The translations under genes and the position numbers were made by a program. From a phage, in the sequence record PZ452610.1: a stretch of 64,000 nt of DNA, one strand, 5' to 3'. Position 1 is the stretch's first letter, and every line of letters begins with the position of its first letter. The notes under the pieces are model-generated. The model was given only the letters and a program-made list of their open reading frames with translations. It made no database searches and was not told where the DNA came from. Below, piece after piece: positions 1,618 through 17,458 of the stretch.

Positions 1618-2064
1618 TTAGTAACTCTGCAGAATGAATTTGAAATTATCAGCCAGAAGACGGTTCATTTCAGTGAGTGTTTGATATTCTGATGTATGGT
1701 TGCGAGTGAATGCCAGAGCCAATTGACCTTTACCATAACCGGTGGTCAGTGGTTTCATGTTCTTAGCTGCAACAAAGATTACATCATATTCAATATTATT
1801 AGTGCCCATGGTACGGGCTAGTTGCGAACGGCCTTGACGAATGTGAGAAAGAATTGCATCCAACCCTTGTTTAGAACGTTGACGTCCTACAAAGAATCGT
1901 GCTGCTACTTGTCGCCAATCAGATGAACCTTTAACAAAGAAGTAAAAACCTTCACGAGAACGAAACTCTTTAGAAACTTCAGAACCGTATTCGCCATTAC
2001 GAACTACTGCAACAACTTCACCGCCAACTGCCAGAAGGTCTTTACGAGTTAAATATTTGGACAT
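1618..2064 (-). CDS. ndd: nucleoid disruption protein Ndd-like
   Basis: 148 aa; position between rIIB cluster and gene 52 as in T4; C-terminal FTRNH.SEYQTL.EMNR.LADNFKF.LQ.Y resembles T4 Ndd from memory. Confidence 0.5.
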
Positions 2065-2108
2065 GCTAATTTCCTCAATTGATTAATGTTTTTGTAATCC
2101 ATGAGAGC

Positions 2109-2138
2109 ATTATACTCTGCTCTCAAGAGTTTGTACAA
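2109..2138 (-). promoter_or_regulatory. early-type sigma70 promoter cassette
   Basis: Minus strand TTGTACA -35-like and TATAAT -10 with 17-18 bp spacer; -10 in loop of GAGAGC/GCTCTC stem; near-identical copy at 47115-47144. Confidence 0.5.
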
Positions 2139-2140
2139 TT

Positions 2141-2341
2141 TTATTCGGTCATATCAGAACGTTCAAAAAGCTCTTCAACAGTTAAACATTCAGTGTCATC
2201 TTCAATAAAAAATCGAGTCCAACACGTTGGGGCGATACAGTTATGAGTTTGTCCGGCGATAGAAGCTACACGAATAAGCTGCTGACCATTATTCAGAACA
2301 AATTTTTCACCAATTTCAACATCTTTAAAAAGCTTAGCCAT
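2141..2341 (-). CDS. hypothetical protein (66 aa)
   Basis: ORF track; sits between two early-promoter cassettes. Confidence 0.45.
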   Translation of the reverse strand: MAKLFKDVEIGEKFVLNNGQQLIRVASIAGQTHNCIAPTCWTRFFIEDDTECLTVEELFERSDMTE

Positions 2342-2369
2342 TTTGTGTTCCTCATGTTTCAGTAGGACT

Positions 2370-2399
2370 ACTATACCATAATCCTACCTTGTTGTAAAC
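2370..2399 (-). promoter_or_regulatory. early-type promoter
   Basis: Minus strand GTTTAC, 18 bp, TATAGT. Confidence 0.5.
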
Positions 2400-2401
2400 A
2401 A

Positions 2402-2512
2402 TTAAATTACATTAAAATATGTTAAAGCCAACCATGTTCCAGTGAACGAACATGCAATGTAAAAACCCGTATCACAAATTGATCTTAGTACAATAAGAAG
2501 TGCATTTTTCAT
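2402..2512 (-). CDS. small ORF (36 aa)
   Basis: Sub-threshold ORF MKNALLIVLRSICDTGFYIA...; GAGGT RBS; ATGA overlap with upstream small ORF. Confidence 0.25.
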   Translation of the reverse strand: MKNALLIVLRSICDTGFYIACSFTGTWLALTYFNVI

Positions 2513-2595
2513 AAGTACCTCAACACAATTGAAAATATTATACAAATCATTGGGATACTAAGCAACCATATTCCGATCCACATTTTAGAGCTCAT
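2509..2595 (-). CDS. small membrane ORF (28 aa)
   Basis: MSSKMWIGIWLLSIPMICIIFSIVLRYL; ATGA overlaps with both neighbours. Confidence 0.25.
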   Translation of the reverse strand: MSSKMWIGIWLLSIPMICIIFSIVLRYL

Positions 2596-2855
2596 ATCTC
2601 AACTTCCGCGAGTTCCATATATCCTTTGTTGATAACCTCTTTAAGGTCTTTAGAAAGGATAACACTAAAATGGTCGTTCATATGTCCATTAACTAAACGA
2701 GTTATTTCGGCTTCAGATGACATATAAGGCACGTCTGAGTCCCAATGAGATAGACCCAAATGGGTATAAATCATCCCTTCGTCATCTGCAGTGTTGTACA
2801 TTGAAACAAATTCGCCTGTTACTTTATGTTTTGCGTAGAAAAATTTAAATTTCAT
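2592..2855 (-). CDS. hypothetical protein (87 aa)
   Basis: ORF track; downstream of early promoter at 2882-2911. Confidence 0.5.
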   Translation of the reverse strand: MKFKFFYAKHKVTGEFVSMYNTADDEGMIYTHLGLSHWDSDVPYMSSEAEITRLVNGHMNDHFSVILSKDLKEVINKGYMELAEVEI

Positions 2856-2881
2856 GATGTTATCCTCTTTTAGATAGGACT

Positions 2882-2911
2882 ACTATATCATAGTCCTACT
2901 TAGTTGTAAAC
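2882..2911 (-). promoter_or_regulatory. early-type promoter with stem-loop
   Basis: Minus strand GTTTAC, 18 bp, TATAGT; -10 flanked by TAGGACTA/TAGTCCTA inverted repeat. Confidence 0.5.
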
Positions 2912-2923
2912 ACTTTTATGAAA

Positions 2924-3400
2924 TTAAAGATGAAGATACCACCCGTTGTAGTTGCTCTTGCGGACGATTTTCTTTAGGTCTTCATGGTCTCCCACGAACT
3001 TTATAGAATAAGAGAAGACGTCAGGTGAGGTTTCTTTGACATCTAATATAATAATGCAATCTGCGACTCGATGGTTCAAGAAGGGCCCTATGTTGATTCC
3101 GTTGCCACCTGGATAATCACCACCGTATCCTGTGGTAACCGAAATCCATTTCGAATCCATCTGATGGGTCTTTACTTCTACGCGTAGACCACAGTACTTA
3201 GGATGAGCTAAAACGTCCCATGCATACGTGTACGGGTCTTCTACGTCTTCATTACCTTTATTAACATATCCGTCTAGCCAATTTGCTACTACATACTCTG
3301 CAAAGACTGCAACCTTACAACGTCGAACAACGTCTTCTTTTATTTGACCTGGATCTTGTTTCAACGAGTACCGAGCAGTATCAGCGATCTTAACCTTCAT
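2924..3400 (-). CDS. hypothetical protein (158 aa); positional candidate for denB but no motif support
   Basis: ORF track 2924..3544 trimmed to in-frame ATG at 3398-3400 to avoid 128-nt overlap with upstream ORF. Confidence 0.45.
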   Translation of the reverse strand: MKVKIADTARYSLKQDPGQIKEDVVRRCKVAVFAEYVVANWLDGYVNKGNEDVEDPYTYAWDVLAHPKYCGLRVEVKTHQMDSKWISVTTGYGGDYPGGNGINIGPFLNHRVADCIIILDVKETSPDVFSYSIKFVGDHEDLKKIVRKSNYNGWYLHL

Positions 3401-3416
3401 TTCGCTAGTCAAAAAC

Positions 3417-3704
3417 TCATTCGACAGGATAAATGTCGGAAGACTCTTCAGCCTCAACAGTCCCAAGTTCGTCTTTACCATAGATACCTCTAATGTGTAG
3501 TTCGCCAAAATAAATGCGGTCACCTTCTTCAAGATATTCTGCATCTACCGGTGGGATTTCAATAACAACTTCGTCACATTCTAACCAGCCATAGTGTGCA
3601 TCGCCAGGATGTTTTACCAATTTAGCACAATAAACTGATTTACACTTATGATGACCACGAAGATTAGCAATTTTGGATTCTGATACGTCAAATGGATGAA
3701 TCAT
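3417..3704 (-). CDS. Cys/His-rich small protein (95 aa)
   Basis: ORF track trimmed to MIHPFD start with AGGGGT RBS just after the rIIB terminator; HHKCKSVYCAKLVKHPGDAH cluster. Confidence 0.5.
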   Translation of the reverse strand: MIHPFDVSESKIANLRGHHKCKSVYCAKLVKHPGDAHYGWLECDEVVIEIPPVDAEYLEEGDRIYFGELHIRGIYGKDELGTVEAEESSDIYPVE

Positions 3705-3711
3705 AATTACC

Positions 3712-3742
3712 CCTAAAGAAAAAAAAGGGGACCGAAGTCCCC
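3712..3742 (-). terminator. intrinsic terminator after rIIB
   Basis: Minus strand GGGGAC-UUCG-GUCCCC hairpin followed by 8 U. Confidence 0.7.
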
Positions 3743-3747
3743 AATTA

Positions 3748-4695
3748 TTATTCTGCAAATAATTCAGTAACGTCTGAAATTACTTCATAACGACAAGTAC
3801 GCATCTTAGCATCACCATAGTCAACTGGGATGGATACAACATCACGTGGATGAACTTTAACCTTCACAACTTTATCTGAGCTTGAACCAAAGTGGCGAAT
3901 ATAAGATTTAGCACAAACGTGGAGACCGCGAGAACAGGTTTGAGTATCATCGTCGTTAACTCGAGTACGAGGCATTGAAACAACTTTACCTGGGGAGTTA
4001 TCAAATGTACCACTATAGCAGTCTAAATAGTCCTTACGAACTACTTTCCATGCATAGAAATACCCATCTTCAGTGATTTCAATATCGTTTGCAACCAAGA
4101 AGTCGAATAAACGTTGTACAGCTTTTTCGCTTGGGTTTTCTAACAGGTTTTCAAGGAATGGCAGATAGAATTTAAAGTCTTCACCTTTTTCCATGGAATC
4201 AATAATACGGTTAACCAGCCCTGAACGAATCTCTATACCTTGATAAAATAAACTACCACCTTCAATAGTAACATTACCATCAACAAACTTAGTAATAGCT
4301 TTCTTGATGTTAATAAGTTCGACAGCTTTACTAAGGTTTCCTGCGACCAGATTAGCTTTAATTTCTTCAAAATTTGCATGACTTGATGGGGTCGCATTGT
4401 ATGCTACGCGTCCTTCAATAATTGAAATAAATTTAGATGACGCGTTCCATACGATTTCAGGACGATGTCCGCCGATAATAGGTTCATCATTTTCTGGAAC
4501 TTCTTCGATTACATAAGAGGCATCGTTTGCTTCAGGGACAACGCCTTCTGCTTTAAAATTCTTAACAATCTTACGAAGAGTATCTGTTGAAATGTCGAAG
4601 TAATCGGCAATTTCTTTACGAGTCCATTTGCCTGATTCAACCAGGCCGTAAGCTTCTAACTGTTCTTCTTGGGACAAGCATTTGATATTGTACAT
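3748..4695 (-). CDS. rIIB: rIIB protein
   Basis: 315 aa, N-terminus MYNIKCL... and length match T4 rIIB; directly downstream of rIIA. Confidence 0.85.
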   Translation of the reverse strand: MYNIKCLSQEEQLEAYGLVESGKWTRKEIADYFDISTDTLRKIVKNFKAEGVVPEANDASYVIEEVPENDEPIIGGHRPEIVWNASSKFISIIEGRVAYNATPSSHANFEEIKANLVAGNLSKAVELINIKKAITKFVDGNVTIEGGSLFYQGIEIRSGLVNRIIDSMEKGEDFKFYLPFLENLLENPSEKAVQRLFDFLVANDIEITEDGYFYAWKVVRKDYLDCYSGTFDNSPGKVVSMPRTRVNDDDTQTCSRGLHVCAKSYIRHFGSSSDKVVKVKVHPRDVVSIPVDYGDAKMRTCRYEVISDVTELFAE

Positions 4696-4704
4696 AATGT
4701 TTCC

Positions 4705-6918
4705 TTATTTGGCTGCTTCCACAGCCTTCATGAATTTAACGATTTGAGTGACCTGTTCTTTGGAAAGAGTACCACGTCGTCCCATGTATTCTGACACAAT
4801 ATGATAATTGGTTTCAAATTCAATAACCATTTTATCATCATAATCGTAAGCATTATCTTTAAGCTTATCGAAAATTTTAGCACACAATTCTAACTTCCTG
4901 TTCAGGTCTCTGTTATCAGCACCTGCGAATCGATTCCATCCCCAACGATTATTTACTGTTGAAAGTTTTGCAAAATCTTTACTGATTTCTTTGTTCTTAG
5001 AGCTAAAATACTTACTAAGGAAGTTAAGCTCTTCATTACGAGTAATATGATTCAAATAAGGCTGTGCTCTACGACTTGGTGATACATACTCATCATAATC
5101 CACTTTATCAATTAGCGTAATATAGTCATTAATTGATTTTTCGAACAAGCATTCTACTTCACCAAGTTTACGAACTTTCTTAGCAATCTGTGGGCGAACT
5201 ACAGTGAACTCTTTAATACCTGACAAATCGGCAATACGAGTCAAGAAATTAGAATCATAATTCAACCAACCTTTATCTGCGTCAAGACATTCAGCATTAG
5301 AACGATTACGAACTATAGCATAACCTTGGATTTCATCTGCTTCACTTGCCGGAATAAAGAGATCTTCTGATACCCAAACATCATTTTCATTCTTAAAGAA
5401 CCGATGAGCACTTGGGGATTTAGGACGAGGCTCATTAGTTCGTTTCCTGACTTCAATCCATGGCTTAACGATTTGTAAAAGCTCTGAAGTCTTGTACATG
5501 TTAATGTTGTCGCCATCAAAGATAACTTTAAGGCGTTCCAGAAGTTTCATTGCATCTTCGTCTGTAGGGTCAACGAATAGTACGCTTTTACCAAAACCAC
5601 GTGGAACTTTACCAGTTAATTTAACCTCGTCTTTAGACATTTCAATTGAATTAAGAGCTCGCATTAATGGAACGCGTCCCTTAACGTCGTCAATAACAAT
5701 TTCAACGTTTTTAATGTTAATGCCAATCAGGCTGTTAATTGAAATGGTTGATGATGAGCTACCACTTTCACGAATACGACGAAGACGAGGGGATTCAACG
5801 ATATCGTATACGACGCCAAGATTACACCACTCAGGCCCCATTTTAAAACGTTTGTACAACTCAGAATAAGTTAGTTGTTCTTTAGAGTATTTCAGTGATT
5901 CAATATTAGACCCGGCCTTTTCCATGTATTTACGAGCGGTATAGCCAAGAGAATCAATTTCACGGAACACATGACGTGGGTATTTACAATCAATCCATTT
6001 CTTAGAATCTTCAGCAAACAATTTAGCATCGATTTCTGCAACGCGTTTATGGATATTTGCTACTGTACGTTTATCAAATGACAATGCTTCACGAGACGGG
6101 GCTACATCTAGTTCACCCATAGGGAATTTAATATAAGCTGTAGTGCATCGCGTCATCATCCATGTTTGTTCTTTAATAACACTTCCGATTGGATATACAA
6201 TACCGCCATAAACAGCCATGATATTACCACGTTCACCCCATGGAGCTTCCTTGGCTAAATAAACATCATCGAATTCCGGGAAGTATTTGATATCTTTAAC
6301 ACCACGAACTTCTGCAATATCGCCGAGAGGACGCATAACATAAGCAATTTCGGATGCGAACTTTTCAAAATCTTCCGGGTTAACCGGTACAACTACTTCT
6401 ACACCCGTACGGTCATCAGGACCCATCTTATCTACAAAGGTCGGCTTAATTTGTGGACCTGTGTCATCTTGGTAGATTACGTAACCACGAACTTCACCGT
6501 TGTGATAAGACGTAAGGTTAAACGTATCAGTATATGCTAATGGAGCTTTAGAACCGAGTCCGAATCCACCAATGAAATCGTTACTCGATGTTTTAGTTGA
6601 AGCAAAATATGAGTTATAAATTCCTGGCTCTTCGTCATTACCTCGAATGGTGAAATCGCTCATACCAGGTCCAAAATCACGAACTACAAAACGTGGGTCT
6701 AAACGACCTGGAGCCTGAACAATAAACTTATCAGTGCAACCGTTAAGAATTTGTCCATCGATACAGTTTGTAATTAATTCACGTACACAAGCCAATTCTT
6801 TGTTTGTATAAAGGTCATTAGACAAAATCTTATAAACTTTGCTATTGCCTTGAATAGTGAATGCTGTGCTCTTACCGCCTGAACCAATAATCGTTTCTTT
6901 AGCCGTTTCAATAATCAT
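4705..6918 (-). CDS. rIIA: rIIA protein (GHKL-type ATPase domain)
   Basis: 737 aa; MIIETAKETI... N-terminus and ELITNCIDG N-box-like motif as in T4 rIIA. Confidence 0.85.
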   Translation of the reverse strand: MIIETAKETIIGSGGKSTAFTIQGNSKVYKILSNDLYTNKELACVRELITNCIDGQILNGCTDKFIVQAPGRLDPRFVVRDFGPGMSDFTIRGNDEEPGIYNSYFASTKTSSNDFIGGFGLGSKAPLAYTDTFNLTSYHNGEVRGYVIYQDDTGPQIKPTFVDKMGPDDRTGVEVVVPVNPEDFEKFASEIAYVMRPLGDIAEVRGVKDIKYFPEFDDVYLAKEAPWGERGNIMAVYGGIVYPIGSVIKEQTWMMTRCTTAYIKFPMGELDVAPSREALSFDKRTVANIHKRVAEIDAKLFAEDSKKWIDCKYPRHVFREIDSLGYTARKYMEKAGSNIESLKYSKEQLTYSELYKRFKMGPEWCNLGVVYDIVESPRLRRIRESGSSSSTISINSLIGINIKNVEIVIDDVKGRVPLMRALNSIEMSKDEVKLTGKVPRGFGKSVLFVDPTDEDAMKLLERLKVIFDGDNINMYKTSELLQIVKPWIEVRKRTNEPRPKSPSAHRFFKNENDVWVSEDLFIPASEADEIQGYAIVRNRSNAECLDADKGWLNYDSNFLTRIADLSGIKEFTVVRPQIAKKVRKLGEVECLFEKSINDYITLIDKVDYDEYVSPSRRAQPYLNHITRNEELNFLSKYFSSKNKEISKDFAKLSTVNNRWGWNRFAGADNRDLNRKLELCAKIFDKLKDNAYDYDDKMVIEFETNYHIVSEYMGRRGTLSKEQVTQIVKFMKAVEAAK

Positions 6919-6930
6919 ATTTTTCTCTCA

Positions 6931-7131
6931 TCACAAGTTACGTTTAAAAATTTCTGCTACTTCAAGAAGTTCTTCTTTAGTAGCTGTATCGGTTTGTATT
7001 TTATATCGAATTTCTTTAAAGCGTTCTTTAAAGGACTCTGCTGACTCGATATCAAAAAATCTTTGGATAAGCCGGAATTCCCGGAGCACTGCTTTATCAA
7101 AAAGTTCCAAGTCCACGTTATATGTTCTCAT
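6931..7131 (-). CDS. hypothetical protein (66 aa), rIIA.1 position
   Basis: ORF track; immediately upstream of rIIA. Confidence 0.5.
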   Translation of the reverse strand: MRTYNVDLELFDKAVLREFRLIQRFFDIESAESFKERFKEIRYKIQTDTATKEELLEVAEIFKRNL

Positions 7132-7154
7132 AATATTCTCTTCAGTAGATTCCT

Positions 7155-7206
7155 AGGGCACTATTACTAAAGACCATATAATCTATCATCTTATGTGTAA
7201 TAGTGC
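7155..7206. repeat. inverted repeat (11-bp arms, 29-nt spacer) between GT gene and rIIA.1
   Basis: GGGCACTATTAC ... GTAATAGTGCC; spacer contains TATAAT-like text. Confidence 0.4.
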
Positions 7207-7223
7207 CTCAGGCGATTCAGGAT

Positions 7224-8324
7224 TTACGCTGTGAAGATTTTATCCCACATCGCAACAACTGCATCTCGGTTATACTTCTTCCATACTGCTTCAGCACGTT
7301 TAACTCGAGCTTCGTATGTGTCAGTGAATTCTAATACAGCTTTTGTGTAAAGCGCAACTACTTCTTTCTTAGGAGTAGAGGAATCAATTTCTACACGCAC
7401 AGTATCTGGGTCGTATTCGAATGTCGCATGAGGATAATCCTTAAAAACTAACTGGATTACAGGGACACCTTTAGAGATGGCTTCAATAGAACTATTCTCT
7501 ACCGTACCTGTGTCAGGACACGTATTAATAAGTGCTTTAGCTGTTTTAAGACGTTCCATAATTTCACTGTGTGGAGCATCAATAATAACAGGATATTTAG
7601 CTGGTGGTGCCCATTTACTAGGACAGTATCCTGCACCATTTTCGCCTAGTGCTTTAATCGCTTCAAGAGCAACATCAGTACGACGCATTTTAGTGTCATA
7701 ACGTTGTGCACTAATAATCAGATCAGTCGCCGGAAGAACTTCAGGTTTCTCATTCAAACAAATAACCGGATAATCTTCGGCTTCAAACAACGGATTTGCT
7801 CGCCAATAATCATAATCAATTTTGTCAGTCAGACCTGAAGTCATATAACAATATTTACGTTCAAATTCACGGAAGGCTTTAGTAGGAGCATAACTCTTAC
7901 CACCATTCTTATGAATTTGAATAGTCTGGTCCCAAATTTGAACAATGCCACGAGATACCGGTTCAAACGGTGTTGCCATAAAATTCTTATGAACTTTAGA
8001 GAGACCTGCGTCTTTAATTGCCTGAACGGTTAGTTTAGTCGGTTCCATAGTAACAACGAAATCGTATTCATGGATGCCGGCTAGTTCAACAATCTTACGA
8101 GCCATAGTATAACTCATACCTAGACTGAATTTAGTCAGATGACCAACAGGATGATGATTAACCTTCCAATCACCAAATGTGTCATTATCAAAACCAATAT
8201 AATCAATATCGGCACCGATAGAAACTAAATATTTCAACACATTTAAATGTACTGCTTCAAGACCACCTTGTACACGGTCAGGATTAAATGGGACTGCACG
8301 AGATGGGATAAACATAACTTTCAT
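7224..8324 (-). CDS. putative GT-B fold glycosyltransferase (candidate DNA glycosyltransferase)
   Basis: 366 aa; C-terminal TGTVENSSIEAISKGVPVI resembles the GT4/GT-B donor-binding motif; sits where T4 has gene 60/mobA. Confidence 0.5.
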   Translation of the reverse strand: MKVMFIPSRAVPFNPDRVQGGLEAVHLNVLKYLVSIGADIDYIGFDNDTFGDWKVNHHPVGHLTKFSLGMSYTMARKIVELAGIHEYDFVVTMEPTKLTVQAIKDAGLSKVHKNFMATPFEPVSRGIVQIWDQTIQIHKNGGKSYAPTKAFREFERKYCYMTSGLTDKIDYDYWRANPLFEAEDYPVICLNEKPEVLPATDLIISAQRYDTKMRRTDVALEAIKALGENGAGYCPSKWAPPAKYPVIIDAPHSEIMERLKTAKALINTCPDTGTVENSSIEAISKGVPVIQLVFKDYPHATFEYDPDTVRVEIDSSTPKKEVVALYTKAVLEFTDTYEARVKRAEAVWKKYNRDAVVAMWDKIFTA

Positions 8325-8337
8325 AATTAAGCCTTAT

Positions 8338-8368
8338 TAAAATTAAAATGAAGCTCCCAAAGGAGCTT
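8338..8368 (-). terminator. hairpin plus U-rich tract after gene 39
   Basis: AAGCTCC/GGAGCTT 7-bp stem overlapping gene 39 stop, then cauuuuaauuuu. Confidence 0.4.
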
Positions 8369-10184
8369 AGGACATCCATTCTTTACGAAGTTCTGAATCA
8401 TCACCCAACAACATTTCAAAGAGTTCTTTCCAATTTTCAGGAAGTTTAACTACGTCGTACACAGGGTTCTGAATCATTTCACGATATTCTGACTTTTCAA
8501 GGGAGCCTAATCCCTTGATGTATCGAATACTATGCTTAGGCAGTGTATCTTTAACTTCTTCATACTCAGCTACAGTATAAAACCATTTTTGAGCTTTGCC
8601 AATTTGTGCAATAATTACAGGCGTTTTAACAAAGCGAATACGTCCTTGTTCAAACAATTCAGGCCAATTACTAAAGAAAGCAAGCAAAGCCGGATAGATA
8701 CTTCCAAGACCGTCGTGATCTGCATCAGTCATAATTGCAATATTACGATAGTTCGTATTCTCTGCCTTTTCACCAAGAATAAGACCTGTGATAGCACAGA
8801 TATCAAAGAGCTCTTTGTTCTTCATCATATCAGCATATGACATACCCCAGCTATTCATCACCTTACCACGTAATGGGAATCCGCCGTGTAGTTCACGGTC
8901 ACGAACATCAATGAGATAACCAATTGCAGAATCACCTTCTGTTAAGAACAATGTCGTATCTGCATCTTTACCACATTGGTTAGCTTTAATATGCTTATGA
9001 ACCTTAGCTTTAGTTGCCTTTTTAGCTGCTTTAGTTTCTGCAGCCTTTTCTGCTGCCAATTTACGAGCTAATGCTGCTTCAACAATAGGCATAATCAAGG
9101 CTTCGTTTTTAAGAAGTGCCTGAGCAATTTTCTTAGCATCTAATTGGATATGATTACGAATATCACCATACGTTGACGTTAAACGTTCTTTAGTCTGAGA
9201 ATCAAAACGCATGTTGCTCATGTCTCTAATAAACATCAACATTGTGAGGCATTCTTTAACACGAGCTTTAGTGACTTCAATACCCTTATATTTCTTTTTA
9301 ATACCCGGCAAAAGATGTTCGCAGATATCGTCCATTACACATTCAACATGATGACCACCATTTTTAGTATGGATGTTATTCACATAAGTTAAATGACGGA
9401 AGCCATCTGGTGATGTTGTGAATGCTATAGAGACTTTATCATTTTCTTGAATGATGTTATCTTCACCAAATTGTTTAGCAAATCGTTTAAAATTACCATC
9501 AACCTTTTTACCATTAAATGTGAACTTGATATCAGGATAAACGACTGCCAATGTTTGAAGTCGGTCTAAAGTAATATCTAAATAAATTTGAGATAAATTA
9601 TGCTCTTCAAATGAAGAGAAATCAGGAGTGAAGATTACTTTAGTGCCTTTACCTTTAGATTTCTTAGAAGACCATGATTTGTTTTCCATTCCGTTTGAAC
9701 AGTTAACAGTGATTTCATTTTCGCCATCTGACGTGATGCCTGTAAACAACGTAGAGAAGATATTAGTTAAACTACTCCCGACGCCGTTCATACCACCAGT
9801 CTTGCGTTCAGAATCATCGCCAAAGTTACCACCAGCTTTTGGAATAGTCCAGGCTGCTACAGGCCCAGGAATTTGTTCACCTGTTTGGTCGGTAACTAAA
9901 CCTTGAGGAATACCACGTCCGTTATCTTCCACCGAAACTTGATTATTTTTAATTTGCACATCAATTTTATTTGCAAACTTAAATGATGTACGAATAGCTT
10001 CATCAACCGAGTTGTCAATAATCTCATCGATTAATTTAACCAGACCAGGAACATATTCAACTTGTTGATATTTACCAAACAAAAAACGCTCGTGGGCTTC
10101 TTTGGCCGAAGAACCAATATACATGCCACTACGTTTCTTAATATGTTCTACATCTGACAGTACCTTAATTTCATTTTTAATCAT
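8367..10184 (-). CDS. 39: DNA topoisomerase II large subunit (GyrB-like), single 39+60 fused form
   Basis: 605 aa; MIKNEIKVLSDVEHIKKRSGMYIGS and IDNSVDEA GHKL motifs; length equals T4 gp39 plus gp60. Confidence 0.9.
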   Translation of the reverse strand: MIKNEIKVLSDVEHIKKRSGMYIGSSAKEAHERFLFGKYQQVEYVPGLVKLIDEIIDNSVDEAIRTSFKFANKIDVQIKNNQVSVEDNGRGIPQGLVTDQTGEQIPGPVAAWTIPKAGGNFGDDSERKTGGMNGVGSSLTNIFSTLFTGITSDGENEITVNCSNGMENKSWSSKKSKGKGTKVIFTPDFSSFEEHNLSQIYLDITLDRLQTLAVVYPDIKFTFNGKKVDGNFKRFAKQFGEDNIIQENDKVSIAFTTSPDGFRHLTYVNNIHTKNGGHHVECVMDDICEHLLPGIKKKYKGIEVTKARVKECLTMLMFIRDMSNMRFDSQTKERLTSTYGDIRNHIQLDAKKIAQALLKNEALIMPIVEAALARKLAAEKAAETKAAKKATKAKVHKHIKANQCGKDADTTLFLTEGDSAIGYLIDVRDRELHGGFPLRGKVMNSWGMSYADMMKNKELFDICAITGLILGEKAENTNYRNIAIMTDADHDGLGSIYPALLAFFSNWPELFEQGRIRFVKTPVIIAQIGKAQKWFYTVAEYEEVKDTLPKHSIRYIKGLGSLEKSEYREMIQNPVYDVVKLPENWKELFEMLLGDDSELRKEWMS

Positions 10185-10206
10185 GTTGTCTCCTCGTTAT
10201 GAAGGT

Positions 10207-10231
10207 ATTCTATCATCCGAAATCTAAAGCA
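10207..10231 (-). promoter_or_regulatory. MotA-box middle promoter upstream of gene 39
   Basis: Minus strand TGCTTTA (exact MotA box), 12 bp, TAGAAT; AGGAG RBS follows. Confidence 0.5.
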
Positions 10232-10249
10232 AAAAGGGCCGAAGCCCTT
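10228..10249 (-). terminator. UUCG-tetraloop terminator
   Basis: Minus strand AAGGGC-UUCG-GCCCUU followed by UUU; overlaps stop of 10248..10670. Confidence 0.55.
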
Positions 10250-10670
10250 ATTTAAATTTAATTTTCTGAAGTGCATCAATTGCAGCCAAACGCCCTTGTT
10301 CACTTTTAACTGTAATGACCACATCACCTGATACGATCACCGAACCATCAACAAATTCTATAGAGCCTTTTTTGAAATCGACAGCTGTATCTGGTTCCGG
10401 AACTTCTTCAAAGAATTTAAATTCTGCACCATAAATCAGAATATCACCTTGCATACTAATGATTGTACGTCCAGGTCCATCGGTTTCAGCGGCAATCATT
10501 GAAACACCGTAGCCAATCATCTCTTCTACAATAAAATCTCTTGATAATAAAACCGTATGCAGAGTAGTGTTAAGACGTTTACCAGTCGTATTAAGAATTC
10601 TCAAGAAATTATCTTCCTGTCCTTTGATAATACGATATTTCTTACCAACTTCAAAACCTTTAAAAGCCAT
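10248..10670 (-). CDS. hypothetical protein (140 aa)
   Basis: ORF track; followed by UUCG hairpin terminator. Confidence 0.55.
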   Translation of the reverse strand: MAFKGFEVGKKYRIIKGQEDNFLRILNTTGKRLNTTLHTVLLSRDFIVEEMIGYGVSMIAAETDGPGRTIISMQGDILIYGAEFKFFEEVPEPDTAVDFKKGSIEFVDGSVIVSGDVVITVKSEQGRLAAIDALQKIKFK

Positions 10671-10672
10671 AA

Positions 10673-10852
10673 TTAACCCTTCTTAAGTAAGTCGTAAAAA
10701 CCACCGTTCACATGTTTAGGAGCAGAAACCCGACGAGTAGACAGACGATGACATTCAGGGCAAACATCGTTTTCTCGTTCAGAAATCCTTTTAATTTTTT
10801 CATATTCATGACCACAATCTTCAGATTGACATTTATAATCGTATAACGGCAT
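10673..10852 (-). CDS. zinc-ribbon protein (59 aa)
   Basis: Sub-threshold ORF MPLYDYKCQSEDCGHEYE...CPECHRL with two CxxC pairs; AGGA RBS. Confidence 0.4.
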   Translation of the reverse strand: MPLYDYKCQSEDCGHEYEKIKRISERENDVCPECHRLSTRRVSAPKHVNGGFYDLLKKG

Positions 10853-10854
10853 TA

Positions 10855-11265
10855 TTATTCCTTAAAATGTGCTTTCAACATTTGATACAAAGACCATGCC
10901 TGGTCATTATTTTTGATAGTAATCGTCATCACAGGAAATTCAGACAATTCATCAAGTTCACCAGAATCTTGCTCTTCGGACGCTTGATATGGATTTCCAA
11001 CTTCGTCAAAGAACTCTGCTTCATTAGTGGAGAGCCAAATAAAGTTTTCATCAAGAATATCACCGCCTGTTGCGTATCCAACTGTGCCAGTAGATGTCAC
11101 AATTTTAGTAGGACGACCAAGATGGTCAACATCTAATACTTTAAATGGTTCCATGCCAAGACGTCGTGCATAAATCCCATTATCAGTGTGGTCTTTAATA
11201 AACTCTTCTTGGGCACGTTTATCTTTAAATTGGTACCATGAGTTAACGCGGAATTTATTAGCCAT
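10855..11265 (-). CDS. hypothetical protein (136 aa)
   Basis: ORF track trimmed to MANKFRV start adjoining upstream stop. Confidence 0.5.
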
Positions 11266-11492
11266 TAGTAAGTTTCCTTCCAATAAGTTGTACCGTTTTC
11301 AGTGATTTCACGGAAGATACCATAGATGGGCATTTCATCGCCAAGTTTTTCGTAAACGTAAACCACTTCGGTGTAGCATAAAAATTCGGTCCAGTTTTTC
11401 TGTACAACAACTAAATCAGGATTAAACAGAACATCTTCAAACTCATCGATGTTTGAATCGGTAGTTACGTTTTTAATGATTTGACGTTTCAT
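11265..11492 (-). CDS. hypothetical protein (75 aa)
   Basis: ORF track trimmed to MKRQII start (AGGAG RBS) downstream of early promoter 11521-11550. Confidence 0.5.
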
Positions 11493-11520
11493 AATATTCT
11501 CCTCTTGTTTTGATAGGTCT

Positions 11521-11550
11521 ATAGTATCATAGACCATAGTTGTTGTACAT
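11521..11550 (-). promoter_or_regulatory. early-type promoter with stem-loop
   Basis: Minus strand TGTACA, 18 bp, TACTAT; GGTCTAT/ATAGACC stem around -10. Confidence 0.45.
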
Positions 11551-12074
11551 CATTTTAGCAAAATAAAATCAACTTGTTCTGCCAATGAACGTCTAAACAT
11601 TAATTGACAACTTCCGAGTATGAAATCAGGTGCTTCATAGACCGCGATGTAGTATCCTTTAGCTTTCAAGAGTTCAACATCCACTTGGTCATCAAACCAT
11701 GCATAAACCGCGTCAACACTTTCAAATCCAAAATAGAACCCTTGAGCCCAATCTTCACTCAATTCAAATGTGTACTCAATTCTATGGTATCTTAAGATAT
11801 TTTGTTCAAGGAGTTTGTCTTCATTTACTGTAGGACGATTAGGGACATTATAGTTGTCGCCGTGATGGTAGAAGTTACCTGAGAGTATTCCATGCTTATC
11901 AAGGAATTCCCATGTTTCTTCAGAGTTGTCGGTGCCTGACCAACCGTACGGCGAGCGAGGTTCTTTATTCCAAGAGGTTTCCCAAATTCTGACGGCTTTA
12001 CCGTCTTCGATAGCAATTCCTGGTAATGATTCACGTTGAGTACAAAAACTACGTTCTACGCGGTAAACTAACAT
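11550..12074 (-). CDS. hypothetical protein (174 aa)
   Basis: ORF track; AGGAG RBS; early promoter upstream. Confidence 0.55.
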   Translation of the reverse strand: MLVYRVERSFCTQRESLPGIAIEDGKAVRIWETSWNKEPRSPYGWSGTDNSEETWEFLDKHGILSGNFYHHGDNYNVPNRPTVNEDKLLEQNILRYHRIEYTFELSEDWAQGFYFGFESVDAVYAWFDDQVDVELLKAKGYYIAVYEAPDFILGSCQLMFRRSLAEQVDFILLK

Positions 12075-12099
12075 ATTATTCTCCTCTGGTTGATATGGT

Positions 12100-12129
12100 T
12101 ATAATATCAAATCCAGAGGAGAAGTAAAC
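12100..12129 (-). promoter_or_regulatory. early-type promoter with stem-loop
   Basis: Minus strand GTTTAC, 17 bp, TATTAT; CCTCTGG/CCAGAGG inverted repeat spans the -10. Confidence 0.5.
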
Positions 12130-12133
12130 AACT

Positions 12134-12553
12134 TTATGCGAAAGCAGCTGGGCTATATTTTTTAATTTGGAATTCAGGAACTACCATGAACTGTCCAGCG
12201 AAAACAATGTTATAAAGCTTAACACCATCTTCTACCCAACGGTCGCTAATAAATCCGGCGATTTGCTTAGTTTTCCACGGTGTTCCATCAGTTGCCGCAG
12301 CAATAGTGAATTCATGGTCTTTTTCAACAGAAACTGATCTGCATAATCCCCATTTGAACGCTTTTTCTTCCGGTTCAATGAATTGGCTTTTAACGTAACC
12401 AATGTTACCATCAGCGTCACGAACTTTAACTTCGTTACGTCCAAAAACAGGATCACTCACAGAAAGAACTTCAACCAACTTCCCGGCAACTTTAGAGCGA
12501 GAAGCAACAGATACATATACGTAATCACCTGTAGAGAGATTTACAATATTCAT
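12134..12553 (-). CDS. hypothetical protein, tandem paralog 1 (139 aa)
   Basis: Shares GFISD.WVEDG.KLYNIVF.G.F.VV motif with next two ORFs. Confidence 0.55.
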   Translation of the reverse strand: MNIVNLSTGDYVYVSVASRSKVAGKLVEVLSVSDPVFGRNEVKVRDADGNIGYVKSQFIEPEEKAFKWGLCRSVSVEKDHEFTIAAATDGTPWKTKQIAGFISDRWVEDGVKLYNIVFAGQFMVVPEFQIKKYSPAAFA

Positions 12554-12562
12554 AATAATTCC

Positions 12563-13018
12563 TTAAGCTTTACGAGGAGACACATAGCGAGTGATTTCAG
12601 ATTCTTTAACAACTCGGAAGTCACCTAAGAATACGATATTGTATAACTTTTCACCATCTTCAACCCATTGGTCACTAATGAAGCCACACATGGTATCAGT
12701 TGTGCTTGGATAGCCGTATTCATCGATGAAGTCAAATTCTTTATCAGTCTGGAATTCAACACCTTTACACAAGGCCCATTTGAACTGTGCATTAGGTTCA
12801 GTAGAAGCAAAATGAGCGCTCACATGAGTTTCCAAGAATTTAGGACTTACGTAAGCATATTGAGTATCCTGACGTCCAAAACTAGGAATGATTCGAACTT
12901 TAACTTCTTTAATACGTCCCATGCCATTTGTGCGAAGTCCGACAACTTCAACCAGACGACCTGCGGCTTTAGAACGGGATGCAGTTGATACACGCTTAAT
13001 TTCACCAATAGTAATCAT
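12563..13018 (-). CDS. hypothetical protein, tandem paralog 2 (151 aa)
   Basis: Paralog of 12134..12553 (STASRSKAAGRLVEV and C-terminal WVEDG motif). Confidence 0.55.
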   Translation of the reverse strand: MITIGEIKRVSTASRSKAAGRLVEVVGLRTNGMGRIKEVKVRIIPSFGRQDTQYAYVSPKFLETHVSAHFASTEPNAQFKWALCKGVEFQTDKEFDFIDEYGYPSTTDTMCGFISDQWVEDGEKLYNIVFLGDFRVVKESEITRYVSPRKA

Positions 13019-13046
13019 AATTTCTCTCTTTGTTTAAATTGAATTC

Positions 13047-13076
13047 ACTATACTCCATCCATCCTTGGATGTACAA
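13047..13076 (-). promoter_or_regulatory. early-type promoter
   Basis: Minus strand TTGTAC, 18 bp, TATAGT; ctccatccatccttggatgtac variant of the repeated cassette. Confidence 0.45.
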
Positions 13077-13078
13077 CA

Positions 13079-13573
13079 TTAATTTAGAATATTAACCACA
13101 GCACTACGTGGAACTACACTAAAATCACCTGCATGAACAACGTTCAGAAGTTCAACACCGTCTTCAATCCACTGGTCAGTTACCCAGCCACTTACCGGTC
13201 CAGCGAATGGTCGACGAATTGAAACTGCTTTACACAACAAGTCTGTAGGCTCGATAGGTTTAACTAAAGTACCGTACATAGAAGCGATGTCCATATCAAA
13301 GTGGAGACCATCTTTAACAGGTGCTTCTCCAATCAACAGTTCAAAGTCGGTGCTTGGAAGGGCGGTAGTAGAAATTGTACCATATGAATTTTTAATTTCT
13401 AAGAATAACCAAGGGCCTTCAGCTTGTTTGATGAAGTTAACAATAGTGAAACTATTACCTTGAGTGGCACCTAAAATTTCACAAAACTTTTCATAAGCTC
13501 GCACTGAAGCACCGTACCAGTTGATTTGTTTTTCGTCTTTCAGGATGTAAGTGGCCGTAGTATTGATATTCAT
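13079..13573 (-). CDS. hypothetical protein, tandem paralog 3 (about 164 aa)
   Basis: C-terminal GWVTDQWIEDGVELLNVVHAGDF related to the two upstream ORFs; start moved to MNINTT because the track start overlaps the promoter. Confidence 0.5.
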   Translation of the reverse strand: MNINTTATYILKDEKQINWYGASVRAYEKFCEILGATQGNSFTIVNFIKQAEGPWLFLEIKNSYGTISTTALPSTDFELLIGEAPVKDGLHFDMDIASMYGTLVKPIEPTDLLCKAVSIRRPFAGPVSGWVTDQWIEDGVELLNVVHAGDFSVVPRSAVVNILN

Positions 13574-13603
13574 AATGGTTTCCAGTTTGGTTAAGATAGA
13601 AAG

Positions 13604-13633
13604 ATTATACTCCAACCATCCTTGGTTGTAAAC
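13604..13633 (-). promoter_or_regulatory. early-type promoter (repeated cassette copy)
   Basis: Minus strand GTTTAC-aaccaaggatggttggag-TATAAT; same cassette at 55614 and 56634. Confidence 0.5.
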
Positions 13634-13638
13634 TGTTT

Positions 13639-14316
13639 TTATCGCTGTTTTACACTTAACGGGTCAGGATTCTCAGGGACATCTTCAAGGCCAAGCGCAT
13701 AACGCTGAGCATATTTTAACATCAAAATATCTTTAGCACAATCATGAATACTATCATGGGCAACGAATCCTTTTAGCGTACCCATCGGTAATGGACACAT
13801 ACTTAATCCTCGTGTCAACGAGTAAGCTTCGATTGCTGTACGAATATCACGTTGAGCCCAGAATTTAACCGGTTCTAATTTATCAGTATCAATATCTGGT
13901 TCAAGAACACCTTCATCACGATAGAGGTCACGAATCAAATCGACCAAGATCGGGAAGTCAAAGCTCATACCACGGCACCACATCTGTGATTTCCATTGGT
14001 CAACTTTATTAGCTCGACAATAATCTAAAAAGATTTTAATGCCTTCAAGCGTAGTGACATCGTCTTCAGACGGAGCCAAGTTTTTACGTGCTTCAGCCGA
14101 TTGTTCTTTCCACCATTTCATAGTGGATTTAGCGAAAACTCGCTTCCCTTTCTGAGAAGCTAAATTAAATTTAATTCGCTTACCTCGTTGAACAAGTTCT
14201 TCAAATGATTCAACAACTTCAGGGTCGGAATTATATGCAATAACCGCAAGGTCAATAACAGCCGCTTTTGATGTATTGCCGAATGTTTCAAAGTCTATAA
14301 TAACATCAGTGCTCAT
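13639..14316 (-). CDS. dexA: exonuclease A (DEDDh 3'-5' exonuclease)
   Basis: 225 aa; N-terminal IIDFETFG Exo I motif; position between motB-like region and dda as in T4. Confidence 0.8.
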   Translation of the reverse strand: MSTDVIIDFETFGNTSKAAVIDLAVIAYNSDPEVVESFEELVQRGKRIKFNLASQKGKRVFAKSTMKWWKEQSAEARKNLAPSEDDVTTLEGIKIFLDYCRANKVDQWKSQMWCRGMSFDFPILVDLIRDLYRDEGVLEPDIDTDKLEPVKFWAQRDIRTAIEAYSLTRGLSMCPLPMGTLKGFVAHDSIHDCAKDILMLKYAQRYALGLEDVPENPDPLSVKQR

Positions 14317-14325
14317 AATTTTCTC

Positions 14326-15639
14326 TCAAATAAAATGGACGTCAAAACGACCACGAGTCGTGCCGACATACAATAACTGTTTAGCTAATTCTGAATCGGC
14401 ATAATGGATACACGGTGTATAAACAAAGGCCGTGTCAACAGACATACCCTGGGCCTTATGGAAGGTTGATACAGGTAGTGCCTTCACCTTAGTGAACATA
14501 CGTTTAGCATCCCAGAATTCGCTCCATGGAGCTTTACCGCCTTTATTCCAGAATTTATATGTTTCTGCGGTCTTAGCCAAAAACAAATTGAATTTATAAA
14601 GCTCTTCTTCAGAAGAAATAACCTTTATATCTTCACGGATGTATTCTTCATCATCACTATATGTTTCTACTGTAAGATTCCAGTATCGTATCATATATTC
14701 GCCTGAAACACCGCGTGCTTTAACGAATGTAGACGTTTCTACAGCATCTCGAATACGAACGAATTGCCCGTTATTGAAAAGCATTTCGGTCATATTTTTG
14801 CCATCTAGCTTATATGTCTTAGTAAATGGCTCTTGTAGAACAATGACTTCGTCTTTAATAAATGGCTTTTCTGTTTCGAGAAGTTTTCGGCGAATAATTG
14901 AATTTAACTTGTCCACCGACTTATTTGTGAATGCCATCATTCGATTTTCGAAAAGGTCTTCAGGAGTTTTAACGACGTTAAAATAGTTCATCATATACGA
15001 TTTAAGGTCTGTATATCCATGAACACCGTGCCCATCAACTACTTTATCGTAAATCCATTTGCCATTACGAATATCAGTCGCAACATCAATAATTGGCGCA
15101 TTGCTACGTTTAACTTCTGTAAGGTTGCATTGCACGAAGTCTTTGTGAGTGAAGAAAGGACTTAGATACGCAGTTGATTCGCCTGGGTCTACCGGACGAA
15201 TCTGGCATCGGTCGCCGATTCCAATTACTGTGCACCATTTAGGGATACTAGCTAACATTATTTTAAACAGAGGACGGTCGCACATTGACGCTTCATCAAA
15301 TAACAGTACACGACACAAGGCTAAGTCGGGAACCTTTTTCTGTTCAAACAATACGTTTTCTTCGTATGTAGTTGGGTTGATTTTAAGAATGCTATGAATA
15401 GTCGATGCTTCTTGACCCGCAAGTTTGCTTAGAACCTTTTTAGCAGCATGTGTAGGGGCTGCTAAAATAATACCTGATTCTCCGGCAGAAATAAGAGCTT
15501 CAACGATGAATCTAGTAAGGGTTGTTTTACCTGTACCAGCAGGCCCATTAATAGTTACGTGATGTTTCTTTTCTTTAATAGCGTTCATAACAACGTTGAA
15601 GGCGTTTTTCTGGCCTTCAGTCAAATCATCAAATGTCAT
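14326..15639 (-). CDS. dda: Dda DNA helicase (SF1)
   Basis: 437 aa; Walker A GPAGTGKTT; matches T4 Dda length and order. Confidence 0.9.
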   Translation of the reverse strand: MTFDDLTEGQKNAFNVVMNAIKEKKHHVTINGPAGTGKTTLTRFIVEALISAGESGIILAAPTHAAKKVLSKLAGQEASTIHSILKINPTTYEENVLFEQKKVPDLALCRVLLFDEASMCDRPLFKIMLASIPKWCTVIGIGDRCQIRPVDPGESTAYLSPFFTHKDFVQCNLTEVKRSNAPIIDVATDIRNGKWIYDKVVDGHGVHGYTDLKSYMMNYFNVVKTPEDLFENRMMAFTNKSVDKLNSIIRRKLLETEKPFIKDEVIVLQEPFTKTYKLDGKNMTEMLFNNGQFVRIRDAVETSTFVKARGVSGEYMIRYWNLTVETYSDDEEYIREDIKVISSEEELYKFNLFLAKTAETYKFWNKGGKAPWSEFWDAKRMFTKVKALPVSTFHKAQGMSVDTAFVYTPCIHYADSELAKQLLYVGTTRGRFDVHFI

Positions 15640-15947
15640 CGTAAAGTCCCTGCAATTGGAATACTAACAATACGGCCTGTGTCCAGGATTCGTTGATACA
15701 ATCTTTGCGTCTCCGCATCTAGTTTAACGTGTTTCATTTCAAGCTTATTAAACCAGAACTTACGCGGAGTTTCGACCATTCTTAGAACTCCCATTTTTAA
15801 ATCTGTTTTATACTGTGTTTTCAAAGTATCGAAAACTTTATCTGCAATATCCTTTCTAAAAAATACTGCAGGACGATGCTCATCAAGTGGAACCGGGACA
15901 GTAAATCCTTCCATATCTCGATAAACTATTGCATATACATAAACCAT
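15636..15947 (-). CDS. hypothetical protein (103 aa), dda.1 position
   Basis: ORF track. Confidence 0.5.
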   Translation of the reverse strand: MVYVYAIVYRDMEGFTVPVPLDEHRPAVFFRKDIADKVFDTLKTQYKTDLKMGVLRMVETPRKFWFNKLEMKHVKLDAETQRLYQRILDTGRIVSIPIAGTLR

Positions 15948-15949
15948 AA

Positions 15950-16696
15950 TTAACCTTTAATCAGTTGGAATAATGATGCGCTAAGTGGTAAGCCACGTTT
16001 CAATTTTAATTTACCAATGAAACCAATCTTTTCAAAACGTTGCAGACCTTGGATAACTTTATCATATGTATCGAAAAGCGATTCAGCGTCAGTTAATTTA
16101 GTTTTAGTTTTCCAGTCAGAGCCTTTAAGAAGAACGTTGAGTTTAGTAAGTTCATGGCCTTCTGCTTGATGTGAGCCATTAATGCGTGCTTTCAAAGCAA
16201 CAATTCTAAGTTTAGATTCGTTAGATAAAGGTTGATTTTTCATCATGTTCGCCATATGCTTAACACGATTTTCACGTTTTGCTCGGATTTTTAAAATAGT
16301 ACCATAAACCTTTTTGATTTGGGCCCATTTCTTCTCGTCGAGATTAAGTTTCTCTACTTTACGGGCCGAAGGATTGGCGATACGTCTTGCAATGGCATCG
16401 CGTTTCCCAATAAGCTCTTCTAATGTTAAATCAGAACGAGCGGTGTTATATTTTTTCTTAACCGGGATAACATTACCTTTAATGTAGCCTATATCATTAT
16501 TAAAACGTTCTAAGGATAATTTCTCACCTTCAACAGAGTTATTAAAAGATTCACCTGAGTAAGCGCAGACCTTTTGATCAAGAATGTTTTTAAGGTAATT
16601 AAAGTCTAAGTTAAAATCCTTAGAGCGTCTCTTCGCAGAAGCTCTGGTGTGGTCAAGACGACGATTGATTTTGTTAATTTTATTATTTGATAACAT
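15950..16696 (-). CDS. hypothetical basic protein (248 aa); positional candidate for Srd
   Basis: ORF track; lies between dda.1 and modA as srd does in T4; no recognised motif. Confidence 0.45.
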   Translation of the reverse strand: MLSNNKINKINRRLDHTRASAKRRSKDFNLDFNYLKNILDQKVCAYSGESFNNSVEGEKLSLERFNNDIGYIKGNVIPVKKKYNTARSDLTLEELIGKRDAIARRIANPSARKVEKLNLDEKKWAQIKKVYGTILKIRAKRENRVKHMANMMKNQPLSNESKLRIVALKARINGSHQAEGHELTKLNVLLKGSDWKTKTKLTDAESLFDTYDKVIQGLQRFEKIGFIGKLKLKRGLPLSASLFQLIKG

Positions 16697-16746
16697 AATA
16701 TTTTCCTCTGTCTTACGGACGTTAAGGTCATTTAGCTGATAAGCTT

Positions 16747-16775
16747 ATAATATCATGCCCTCAGGTAGTGTACAC
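16747..16775 (-). promoter_or_regulatory. early-type promoter upstream of srd-position gene
   Basis: Minus strand GTGTAC-like -35 and TATTAT -10. Confidence 0.4.
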
Positions 16776-16849
16776 TCTTTTTTCGTAAAATGCTTTAATT
16801 TTTTATGTGTTATAATGGTTCTGAGTTCCATCCGGTTATTCCAATTCAG

Positions 16850-17458
16850 TCAGTAACTGACAATAGACAGATTCCAGATTGTATAACGTCCATCTTGAAT
16901 AATAGAATCTACACGCAGTGTAGTCCCTATAGGGAGCATAAATTCACATTCGTCAGATATAAGTCTAGCATTAGACCGTCTTGTCGCTTCAGGGAAAGCT
17001 CCATTGAACTCACAAGATGGCGCAGCCAGAATCATGTTAAGCATATGTTCACGGAAGTTGAAAGCAAATGGTGCATCTTTGATGCAGAACATATTAAATG
17101 TTCCGTAAAAATTATACGAAGCAAAGTTACGTGCTACACCGAACACTGGACTGAAGCTCATTACTCTGTCAAATTTAATAATACTACCAATGCCTTTATC
17201 ATCAAGTGTAGCCATAGTTTTCTTAGAGATTCCACGATACATTGTCTCAGGAACAGAAGACGACCAATTTCTACGAACAATTGCACTTAAATCTTTTTGG
17301 ATGCTATCAGGCTTGTTTTCCATACACTGCCATAGTACACTTTGTTCAATGTCACTGAATTGCTCATCGATTTTGTACTGAAGCATATCTTGATAATCCG
17401 GGCATTGAGCACGACGAACCATTTCTTCAATTTCACACTCGTTATACGGCATAAACAT
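16850..17458 (-). CDS. modA: ADP-ribosyltransferase (ModA-like)
   Basis: 202 aa; R (ETMYRG), S-x-S (SFSP) and E-x-E (SDECEF) ART motifs; T4 order dda-srd-modA-modB. Confidence 0.55.
   Translation of the reverse strand: MFMPYNECEIEEMVRRAQCPDYQDMLQYKIDEQFSDIEQSVLWQCMENKPDSIQKDLSAIVRRNWSSSVPETMYRGISKKTMATLDDKGIGSIIKFDRVMSFSPVFGVARNFASYNFYGTFNMFCIKDAPFAFNFREHMLNMILAAPSCEFNGAFPEATRRSNARLISDECEFMLPIGTTLRVDSIIQDGRYTIWNLSIVSY

Follow-up and report, generated by a model that had tools for sequence, protein, structure and literature searches.

The window analysed here, a stretch of 64,000 nucleotides from the phage record PZ452610.1, carries on its minus strand (8367..10184) gene 39, which encodes the large (GyrB/ParE-like) subunit of topoisomerase II. 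Exactly one ORF was found at these positions in the ORF list of the window, an uninterrupted frame of 605 codons starting with ATG, and the original prediction of a single 605-aa ORF at 8367-10184 is exact in its coordinates. Given the G+C content of the window of ~37%, the computed stop-codon frequency is ~0.068 per random codon and the probability of 605 open codons is ~3e-19, which rules out a chance ORF. A Shine-Dalgarno sequence, GAGGAG, was read directly at 10190..10195 on the same strand, 5 nt 5' of the ATG at 10184. A consensus scan placed a terminator-like GC hairpin with a T-run at 10234..10249, in the interval that separates gene 39 from the ORF upstream of it, and a second terminator-like hairpin at 8351..8368, overlapping the gene 39 stop codon; both lie on the minus strand and are pattern matches only. 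In this region, six such hairpins were observed and 1.6 were expected. Sigma-70-like promoters were not above background (11 sites, with 12.8 expected from shuffled sequence), and tRNA and Rfam scans of the entire 64-kb window returned no RNA genes.

The gene for the partner subunit is also present. Gene 52, encoding the topoisomerase II medium (GyrA-like, DNA-cleaving) subunit, occupies 1..1273 on the minus strand, where its first 424 codons are present and the remainder lies beyond the left boundary of the window; the full gene encodes 441 aa in KP869101 (positions 154912-156237 of that record). Residues 1-424 match the T4/T6 chains named “DNA topoisomerase medium subunit” (8yo3_A and 8ylu_A) with 848 bits, and the fragment contains the “...AASRY...” segment, as looked for in an A-type subunit with a catalytic tyrosine. 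Gene 39 itself lies in the conserved T-even block 39 - rIIA.1 - rIIA - rIIB ... 52. As in T4 and T2, it is found upstream of rIIA.1, rIIA and rIIB on one strand, here with one gene interposed. This interposed gene is a 366-aa ORF at 7224..8324 on the minus strand, a homolog of RB69 ORF003c (RB69p003), in a slot that is taken by gene 60 in T4 and by nothing in T2. RB69 ORF003c was proposed to be an arabinosyltransferase (PMC6024577) and was later listed as a putative beta-arabinosyltransferase 2 of the arabinosyl-5-hydroxycytosine pathway (PMC13326640). On the other side, MotB-like and goF-like paralogs stand in tandem upstream of gene 39.

The gene 39 protein (gp39) of the window is 100% identical in amino acids, over all 605 residues, to that of the E. 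coli O157 typing phage 3 (KP869101 / NC_041863), an RB69-like phage of the genus Mosigvirus. In a tblastn search of 50,697 phage records, a homolog was found in about 2200, and 147 of the records, KP869101 included, contain a protein that is at least 95% identical to it. Among the PHROGs families, phrog_543, “DNA topoisomerase II large subunit”, matches residues 1-605 with an E-value of 1e-286, and phrog_7229 matches residues 452-605 (E=1e-68). The best match in the PDB is T6 gp39 (8ylu_C and five more entries, 8yo1 and 8yod among those matched), aligned from 1-605 to 1-604 with 1160 bits, followed by an engineered T4 gp39-gp60 fusion (8yo3_C) with 1117 bits. Human and yeast Topo II scored 213-177 bits and bacterial ParE and GyrB 167-133 bits.

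All the elements expected in the B-type subunit of a type IIA topoisomerase were found in order along the protein. The GHKL ATPase core (residues 47-189; 9618..10046, minus strand) was detected by Pfam HATPase_c with E=3.5e-11 and 43.9 bits (cutoff 26.4), and this domain contains the N-box EIIDNSVDE at residues 54-62, the G1 box DNGRGIP at 87-93 and the G2 box GGMNGVG at 130-136. The transducer domain (residues 249-385; 9030..9440, minus strand), which was detected by Pfam DNA_gyraseB with E=2.8e-14 and 53.4 bits (cutoff 27), carries the QTK loop and its lysine at residues 330-332. The Toprim domain (residues 411-519; 8628..8954, minus strand) gave 17.5 Pfam bits, under the cutoff of 23.1, and the C-terminal Toprim-associated region (residues 520-604; 8373..8627, minus strand) gave 28.1 bits with TOPRIM_C, just under the cutoff of 29. 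Nevertheless, the Toprim motifs are there: EGDSA at residues 416-420 with the metal-binding E416, PLRGK at 437-441, and DADHDG at 487-492 with the metal-binding D487 and D489, which together form the E...DxD signature. These three acidic residues align to E415, D486 and D488 of T6, described as the metal pocket in the T6 structural paper (PMC11461880). We give the residues of these motifs, and the alignment over the full length to the solved T6 and T4 structures, more weight than the two sub-cutoff Pfam scores. The Toprim domain, which is whole in the window protein, is the one divided by the split in T4.

In T4, the same enzyme, with a common ancestor, was split by a MobA element and became a three-subunit topoisomerase II whose synthesis includes a 50-nt translational bypass. 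For the comparison with T4 (reference NC_000866), gene 39 was translated (516 aa) and the 160-aa gp60 was assembled from the coding segments on either side of the annotated 50-nt bypass. By BLASTP, residues 1-474 of the window protein align to residues 1-473 of T4 gp39 with 79% identity and a single 1-aa gap, and residues 473-605 align to residues 27-159 of gp60 with 86% identity and no gaps (E=2e-87). The proposal that one ORF covers the equivalents of both T4 proteins is thus borne out; the frame is, moreover, collinear with the unsplit gp39 of T2 and of T6, and the C-terminus, far from being unrelated to gp60, is homologous to it over some 130 aa. Two segments of T4 have no counterpart in the window protein, namely residues 474-516 of gp39 (FEEKEDGEW...RKNL) and roughly the first 30 residues of gp60. 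The original prediction needs correction in two details. It located the junction near residue 515, while the junction maps to residues ~474-477 (window positions 8754..8765); the figure of 515 corresponds to the length of T4 gp39 (515-516 aa) when the 43-aa tail derived from the insert is counted in. The gp60-like part, given there as 90 aa, actually extends from residue ~473/477 to 605, that is, ~130 aa.

Codon-by-codon comparison with T4 delimits an empty MobA-element site at 8709..8765 on the minus strand. The window matches T4 gene 39 closely up to and including codon 474 (GCA), where homology to that gene ends, and the identity collapses from codon 475 onwards. Identity with T4 gene 60 starts at codons 477-478 (ACG AAC in the window, ATG AAC in T4) and then continues, in agreement with blastn, in which DNA homology to gene 60 resumes at window position 8754. 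Two or three codons of the window (E-N-T) stand where T4 has ~1 kb of DNA, roughly its positions 2899-3909. In T4, this inserted DNA follows codon 473 and comprises the 43-aa C-terminal extension of gp39, a decayed mobA, 60.1, and the 30-aa N-terminal extension of gp60, all of which are absent from the window. Codons 475-492 (ENTNYRNIAIMTDADHDG) constitute an 18-aa parental stretch, in place of which T4 has the ~1-kb insert and its own homologous copy.

The position of the bypass can be traced with the same precision. T4 reads ...CAC GAT GGA, followed by the 50 nt TAGCCTTCGGGCTA...TTGGA and then by TTA GGT TCT, so that an untranslated gap follows Gly46 of gp60. The window gene has no such gap and reads CAC GAC GGT CTT GGA AGT without interruption in codons 490-495; the 50 nt of T4 would fall between G492 (GGT, 8709..8711) and L493 (CTT, 8706..8708). 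A coding gap of the T4 type, with its GGA take-off codon, stop codon and hairpin, was not found at this position, where GGT(492) and CTT(493) are adjacent and there is no stop. Similarly, there is no in-frame extension of ~44 aa closing a first ORF near residues 466-473, since the ORF reads through.

Remnants of the insert were sought in the full 64-kb window in two ways: by tblastn with the C-terminal extension of T4 gp39, the annotated mobA, gp60.1 and residues 1-30 of gp60, and by blastn (word size 7), for which the complete T4 insert of 1.1 kb served as query. Besides the expected coding homology at 8710..8754, only chance-level matches (E >= 0.2) were obtained; for the two extensions, mobA and 60.1, the best E-values were about 0.8-1. 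In addition, phrog_19082, a 45-position family that appears to have been built from the pre-bypass fragment of gene 60, aligns to the window protein only through profile positions 29-45 (residues 476-492), and the insert-specific N-terminal part is therefore absent. No HNH endonuclease MobA or remnant of one was found beside gene 39, the downstream ORF being a glycosyltransferase-family protein. The claim that the genome lacks a separate gene 60 and a mobA-like insert holds across the whole window, in which we found neither a second gp60-like ORF nor mobA-like sequence, and the continuity of codons at both the junction and the bypass site, together with the lack of insert remnants, confirms the unsplit arrangement. 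The window gene shows none of the defining features of the T4-type split that we tested and all of the testable features of the unsplit type.

The same arrangement is found in the closest relatives. The differences between the window gene and gene 39 of RB69 and KP869101 are essentially none, and the window appears to come from the typing phage or from an isolate that is nearly identical to it. RB69, a phage of the same genus, has this gene (NC_004928.1) in the same neighbourhood, with 98.3% nucleotide identity across the junction region. A 301-nt probe taken from window positions 8600-8900, which spans both the insertion and the bypass sites, matched 155 phage records at 95% identity or more, and each of the sampled rows was one contiguous piece with 100% coverage, including that of RB69 NC_004928.1, annotated as “gene 39: DNA topoisomerase II large subunit”. 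T2 and T6 belong to Tequatrovirus, while the window phage belongs to Mosigvirus, and their proteins have diverged by ~18% in amino acids. T2 gp39 (AP018813) is likewise a single 605-aa ORF, located directly upstream of rIIA.1; it is 82% identical to the window protein and collinear with it from end to end, with no gap near the junction. Compared with it, the window protein has one extra residue (G301) and lacks the final residue of T2. Across codons 466-503, 88 of 114 nt are identical between the window and T2, again with no gap. The gp39 proteins of T2 and T6 have the same order of domains as the window protein and alike catalytic residues, offset by +1, have no insert in Toprim, and pair with gp52. 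Structures of T6 gp39 are available under 8YLU, 8YO1, 8YO5, 8YO7, 8YOD, 8YON and 9IMJ. The T2 and T6 topoisomerases II have been described as two-subunit enzymes, with structures and relaxation activity reported for T6, and the Toprim insertion of ~70 aa in T4 as lying external to the domain and hardly affecting activity (PMC11461880).

Regarding the frequency of the split, the 43-aa insert-derived extension of T4 was detected by tblastn in 62 phage records, compared with the ~2200 that have a homolog of the gene; 62 is a lower bound, as Shewanella phages are missing from the extension tally although the gene of one of them, Thanatos-1, shows a visible split into two pieces that span 2.85 kb. 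Forty-three of these records are T4-like, with an identity of at least 95%, and the other 19 are Proteus, Acinetobacter or Aeromonas phages with less than 60%. Among 60 sampled rows of the tblastn search, homologs in several pieces occurred in two, vB_EcoM_CE1 and Thanatos-1. A preprint of 2022 (10.1101/2022.08.31.505936) concluded that the ancestral gene for the large subunit was single and was split by a MobA element of 1097-1106 nt inserting at aa 466-473. According to that study, the element adds a C-terminal extension of ~44 aa to ORF1 and, to ORF2, the bypass cassette and an N-terminal extension of 44-45 aa (about 46 aa in phage HY01) in which 16 insert-encoded aa duplicate the host stretch that was deleted; for all six affected clades, there are near-identical relatives that lack the element. 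This description agrees with the junction placed here at codon 474 and with a parental stretch of 18 aa (475-492).

Taken together, we conclude that the ORF is almost certainly gene 39 of an RB69-like (Mosigvirus) T-even phage, that it encodes a complete B-type subunit of a type IIA topoisomerase, and that it represents the parental allele, never occupied by the element. The gene would then be uninterrupted because it was never entered by the MobA homing-endonuclease element of ~1.1 kb, which, in T4 and a minority of relatives, splits Toprim into gp39 and gp60 and brings in the 50-nt bypass cassette. A single ORF could also be the product of a secondary re-fusion (“hit and run”), if a MobA element had once split the gene and was later excised. 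There is a precedent for this: eight Aeromonas phages have a full-length ORF that keeps extension-like sequences at the usual site (10.1101/2022.08.31.505936), and these phages are also among our tblastn matches to the T4 gp39 extension. The window, however, contains no extension-derived sequence detectable by tblastn or blastn, its protein has the length of T2 gp39 and is gapless against it across residues 466-503, phrog_19082 matches through its homologous tail only, and the junction is contiguous in all the sampled Mosigvirus relatives. A re-fusion would have to be a perfectly scarless excision, for which there is no support, and we regard this history as highly improbable.

Two further readings concern the nature of the gene rather than its history. 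It could be a host-derived subunit of bacterial topoisomerase IV (ParE) or gyrase (GyrB), as might be read from the GenBank annotation of KP869101, where the identical gene is labelled “parE: DNA topoisomerase 4 subunit B” and gene 52 gyrA, and from the Pfam domains, which are common to all GyrB/ParE proteins. Against this, the phage topoisomerases II of T6 and T4 far outscore bacterial ParE and GyrB in the PDB ranking, and the gene occupies its place in the conserved T-even block; a host origin is accordingly given next to no probability. By the same ranking, the “parE”/topoisomerase IV label is a misnomer of automated annotation, and the gene is T-even gene 39. A decayed or non-functional copy that is still open would be equally hard to defend. 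We found no point in its favour, and the ATPase, QTK and Toprim catalytic motifs are all intact, the protein is at least 95% identical in the 147 records mentioned above, and a strong Shine-Dalgarno sequence and the gene of the partner subunit are present, which leaves this option with a negligible likelihood.

The protein can be assigned a role by analogy with its relatives. Two copies of gp39 and two of gp52, the GyrA-like subunit with the catalytic tyrosine, whose gene starts ~7 kb downstream on the same strand, would assemble as a heterotetramer. By analogy with T6, the gate duplex would be bound and cleaved through the E...DxD metal site of Toprim and the tyrosine of gp52, and a second duplex would be captured through the ATP-driven dimerisation of the ATPase domains. 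The captured duplex would then be passed through the break and the break resealed, relaxing supercoils during phage replication. Both the activity and the stoichiometry are expected from the protein of T2 (82% identical) and from that of T6, which is similarly close and for which structures and relaxation activity are published. Eukaryotic Topo II and bacterial GyrB/ParE share with the window protein the GHKL ATPase, the transducer, Toprim and two-gate strand passage, but are far more distant from it (133-213 bits, compared with the 1160 of T6 gp39). In our PDB search, the window sequence is nearer to eukaryotic Topo II than to the bacterial enzymes, which agrees with the relationship reported from structures for the T-even enzyme (PMC11461880).

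The unsplit gene 39 is the documented ancestral and majority state, and the split of T4 with its bypass is rare and derived. Nothing in the locus is new, as the identical gene is in GenBank, that of RB69 is correctly annotated and the arrangement was already known. The observation carries little weight as a discovery and amounts to the correct annotation of a core replication gene. Its practical value is that it mends a misleading “parE / topo IV” label and gives exact positions for the vacant MobA site of a Mosigvirus (codons 474-492), so that the window gene may serve as a reference for the parental allele or provide a substrate in studies of homing and bypass.

It is tempting to ask whether the window junction is a competent but unoccupied homing target of MobA, an idea that we hold tentatively and think rather unlikely. 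In T2, the reported nick position is surrounded by the core AATATTGCnATTATGACTGATGC, and the window phage has nearly the same core; among the ~155 Mosigvirus-type records matched by the junction probe, all the sampled rows are contiguous. If MobA can cut this site, the absence of the element from Mosigvirus would suggest that a barrier keeps it from spreading, for which two candidates may be named: the arabinosylated cytosine of RB69-like DNA, which could block MobA, and the failure of RB69 to recombine with T4-type phages, which has been documented. Both the cleavability of the empty site and the barrier in Mosigvirus are speculative. By tblastn, the only phages found to have the extension brought by the MobA element were those of the Tequatrovirus type and those of Proteus, Acinetobacter and Aeromonas, the count of 62 being a lower bound.

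The space between gene 39 and rIIA.1, which holds gene 60 in T4 and is free of genes in T2, is occupied here by a 366-aa ORF on the minus strand (7224..8324). A Pfam search with this ORF gave no match. For its homolog in RB69, ORF003c/RB69p003, one paper proposes the role of a GT-B-fold DNA arabinosyltransferase (PMC6024577), and another enters that protein as putative beta-arabinosyltransferase 2 (PMC13326640). The ORF is present at 95% identity or more in about 156 Mosigvirus-type records, and it is also found at about 43% identity in some 55 Acinetobacter phage records, often in two copies.

Both gene 39 and the 366-aa ORF, the genes compared, are 100% identical to their counterparts in KP869101 (E. 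coli O157 typing phage 3). In that record, gene 39 (146001-147818) is named "parE: DNA topoisomerase 4 subunit B", gene 52 (154912-156237) is named "gyrA: DNA gyrase subunit A", and rIIA, rIIB and the ORF003c homolog are all given as "hypothetical protein"; these names and labels are misnomers or omissions of automated annotation. In the window, gene 52, which encodes the topoisomerase II medium subunit and is the partner of gene 39, lies on the minus strand at 1..1273; its start is at 1273 and 424 of its 441 codons are inside the window, the rest falling beyond the left edge, and it is absent from the ORF listing of the window because this edge cuts the gene.

The split (MobA-element) arrangement is found in other clades, as in MT457552.1 (Shewanella phage Thanatos-1) and ON229909.1 (vB_EcoM_CE1), in which the gene 39 homolog is in two to three pieces over about 2.85 kb with "hypothetical proteins" interposed between them. 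The 62 records that carry the T4 gp39 extension, the 43-aa insert-derived C-terminal tail, are to be taken as a lower bound, because the by-organism tally of that search includes no Shewanella phage although the gene of Thanatos-1 is split. In the T4 reference (NC_000866), mobA (3352..3777, minus strand) is annotated only as a 37-aa HNH fragment, and six-frame translation of the region gives a short open stretch that ends in a stop and is followed by many others, consistent with the pseudogenised MobA reported for laboratory T4 (10.1101/2022.08.31.505936).

Gene 39 is flanked on the minus strand by GC-rich hairpins with a T-run, one directly upstream (10234..10249) and one directly downstream (8351..8368). 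Since six terminator-like sites were observed within 7100..10700 and 1.6 were expected from shuffles, the enrichment of these putative sites around the gene looks real.

Further upstream, also on the minus strand, two paralogs matching phrog_622 in PHROGs (10248..10670 and 10855..11283), with weaker matches to goF mRNA-metabolism-modulator families, enclose a 59-aa FmdB-like zinc-ribbon gene (10673..10852), the equivalent of T4 39.2. Three tandem minus-strand paralogs of 139, 151 and 178 aa (12134..12553, 12563..13018 and 13079..13615) share the C-terminal motif FISDxWVEDGxKLYNIVF.G.F.VV and match phrog_1671, "MotB-like transcriptional regulator", and phrog_2333; the equivalent position in T4 is that of motB, motB.1 and motB.2.

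Over the whole 64-kb window (1..64000), ARAGORN found no tRNA genes and no Rfam family reached its gathering threshold. GC skew is negative along the entire window, consistent with the location of most genes on the minus strand.
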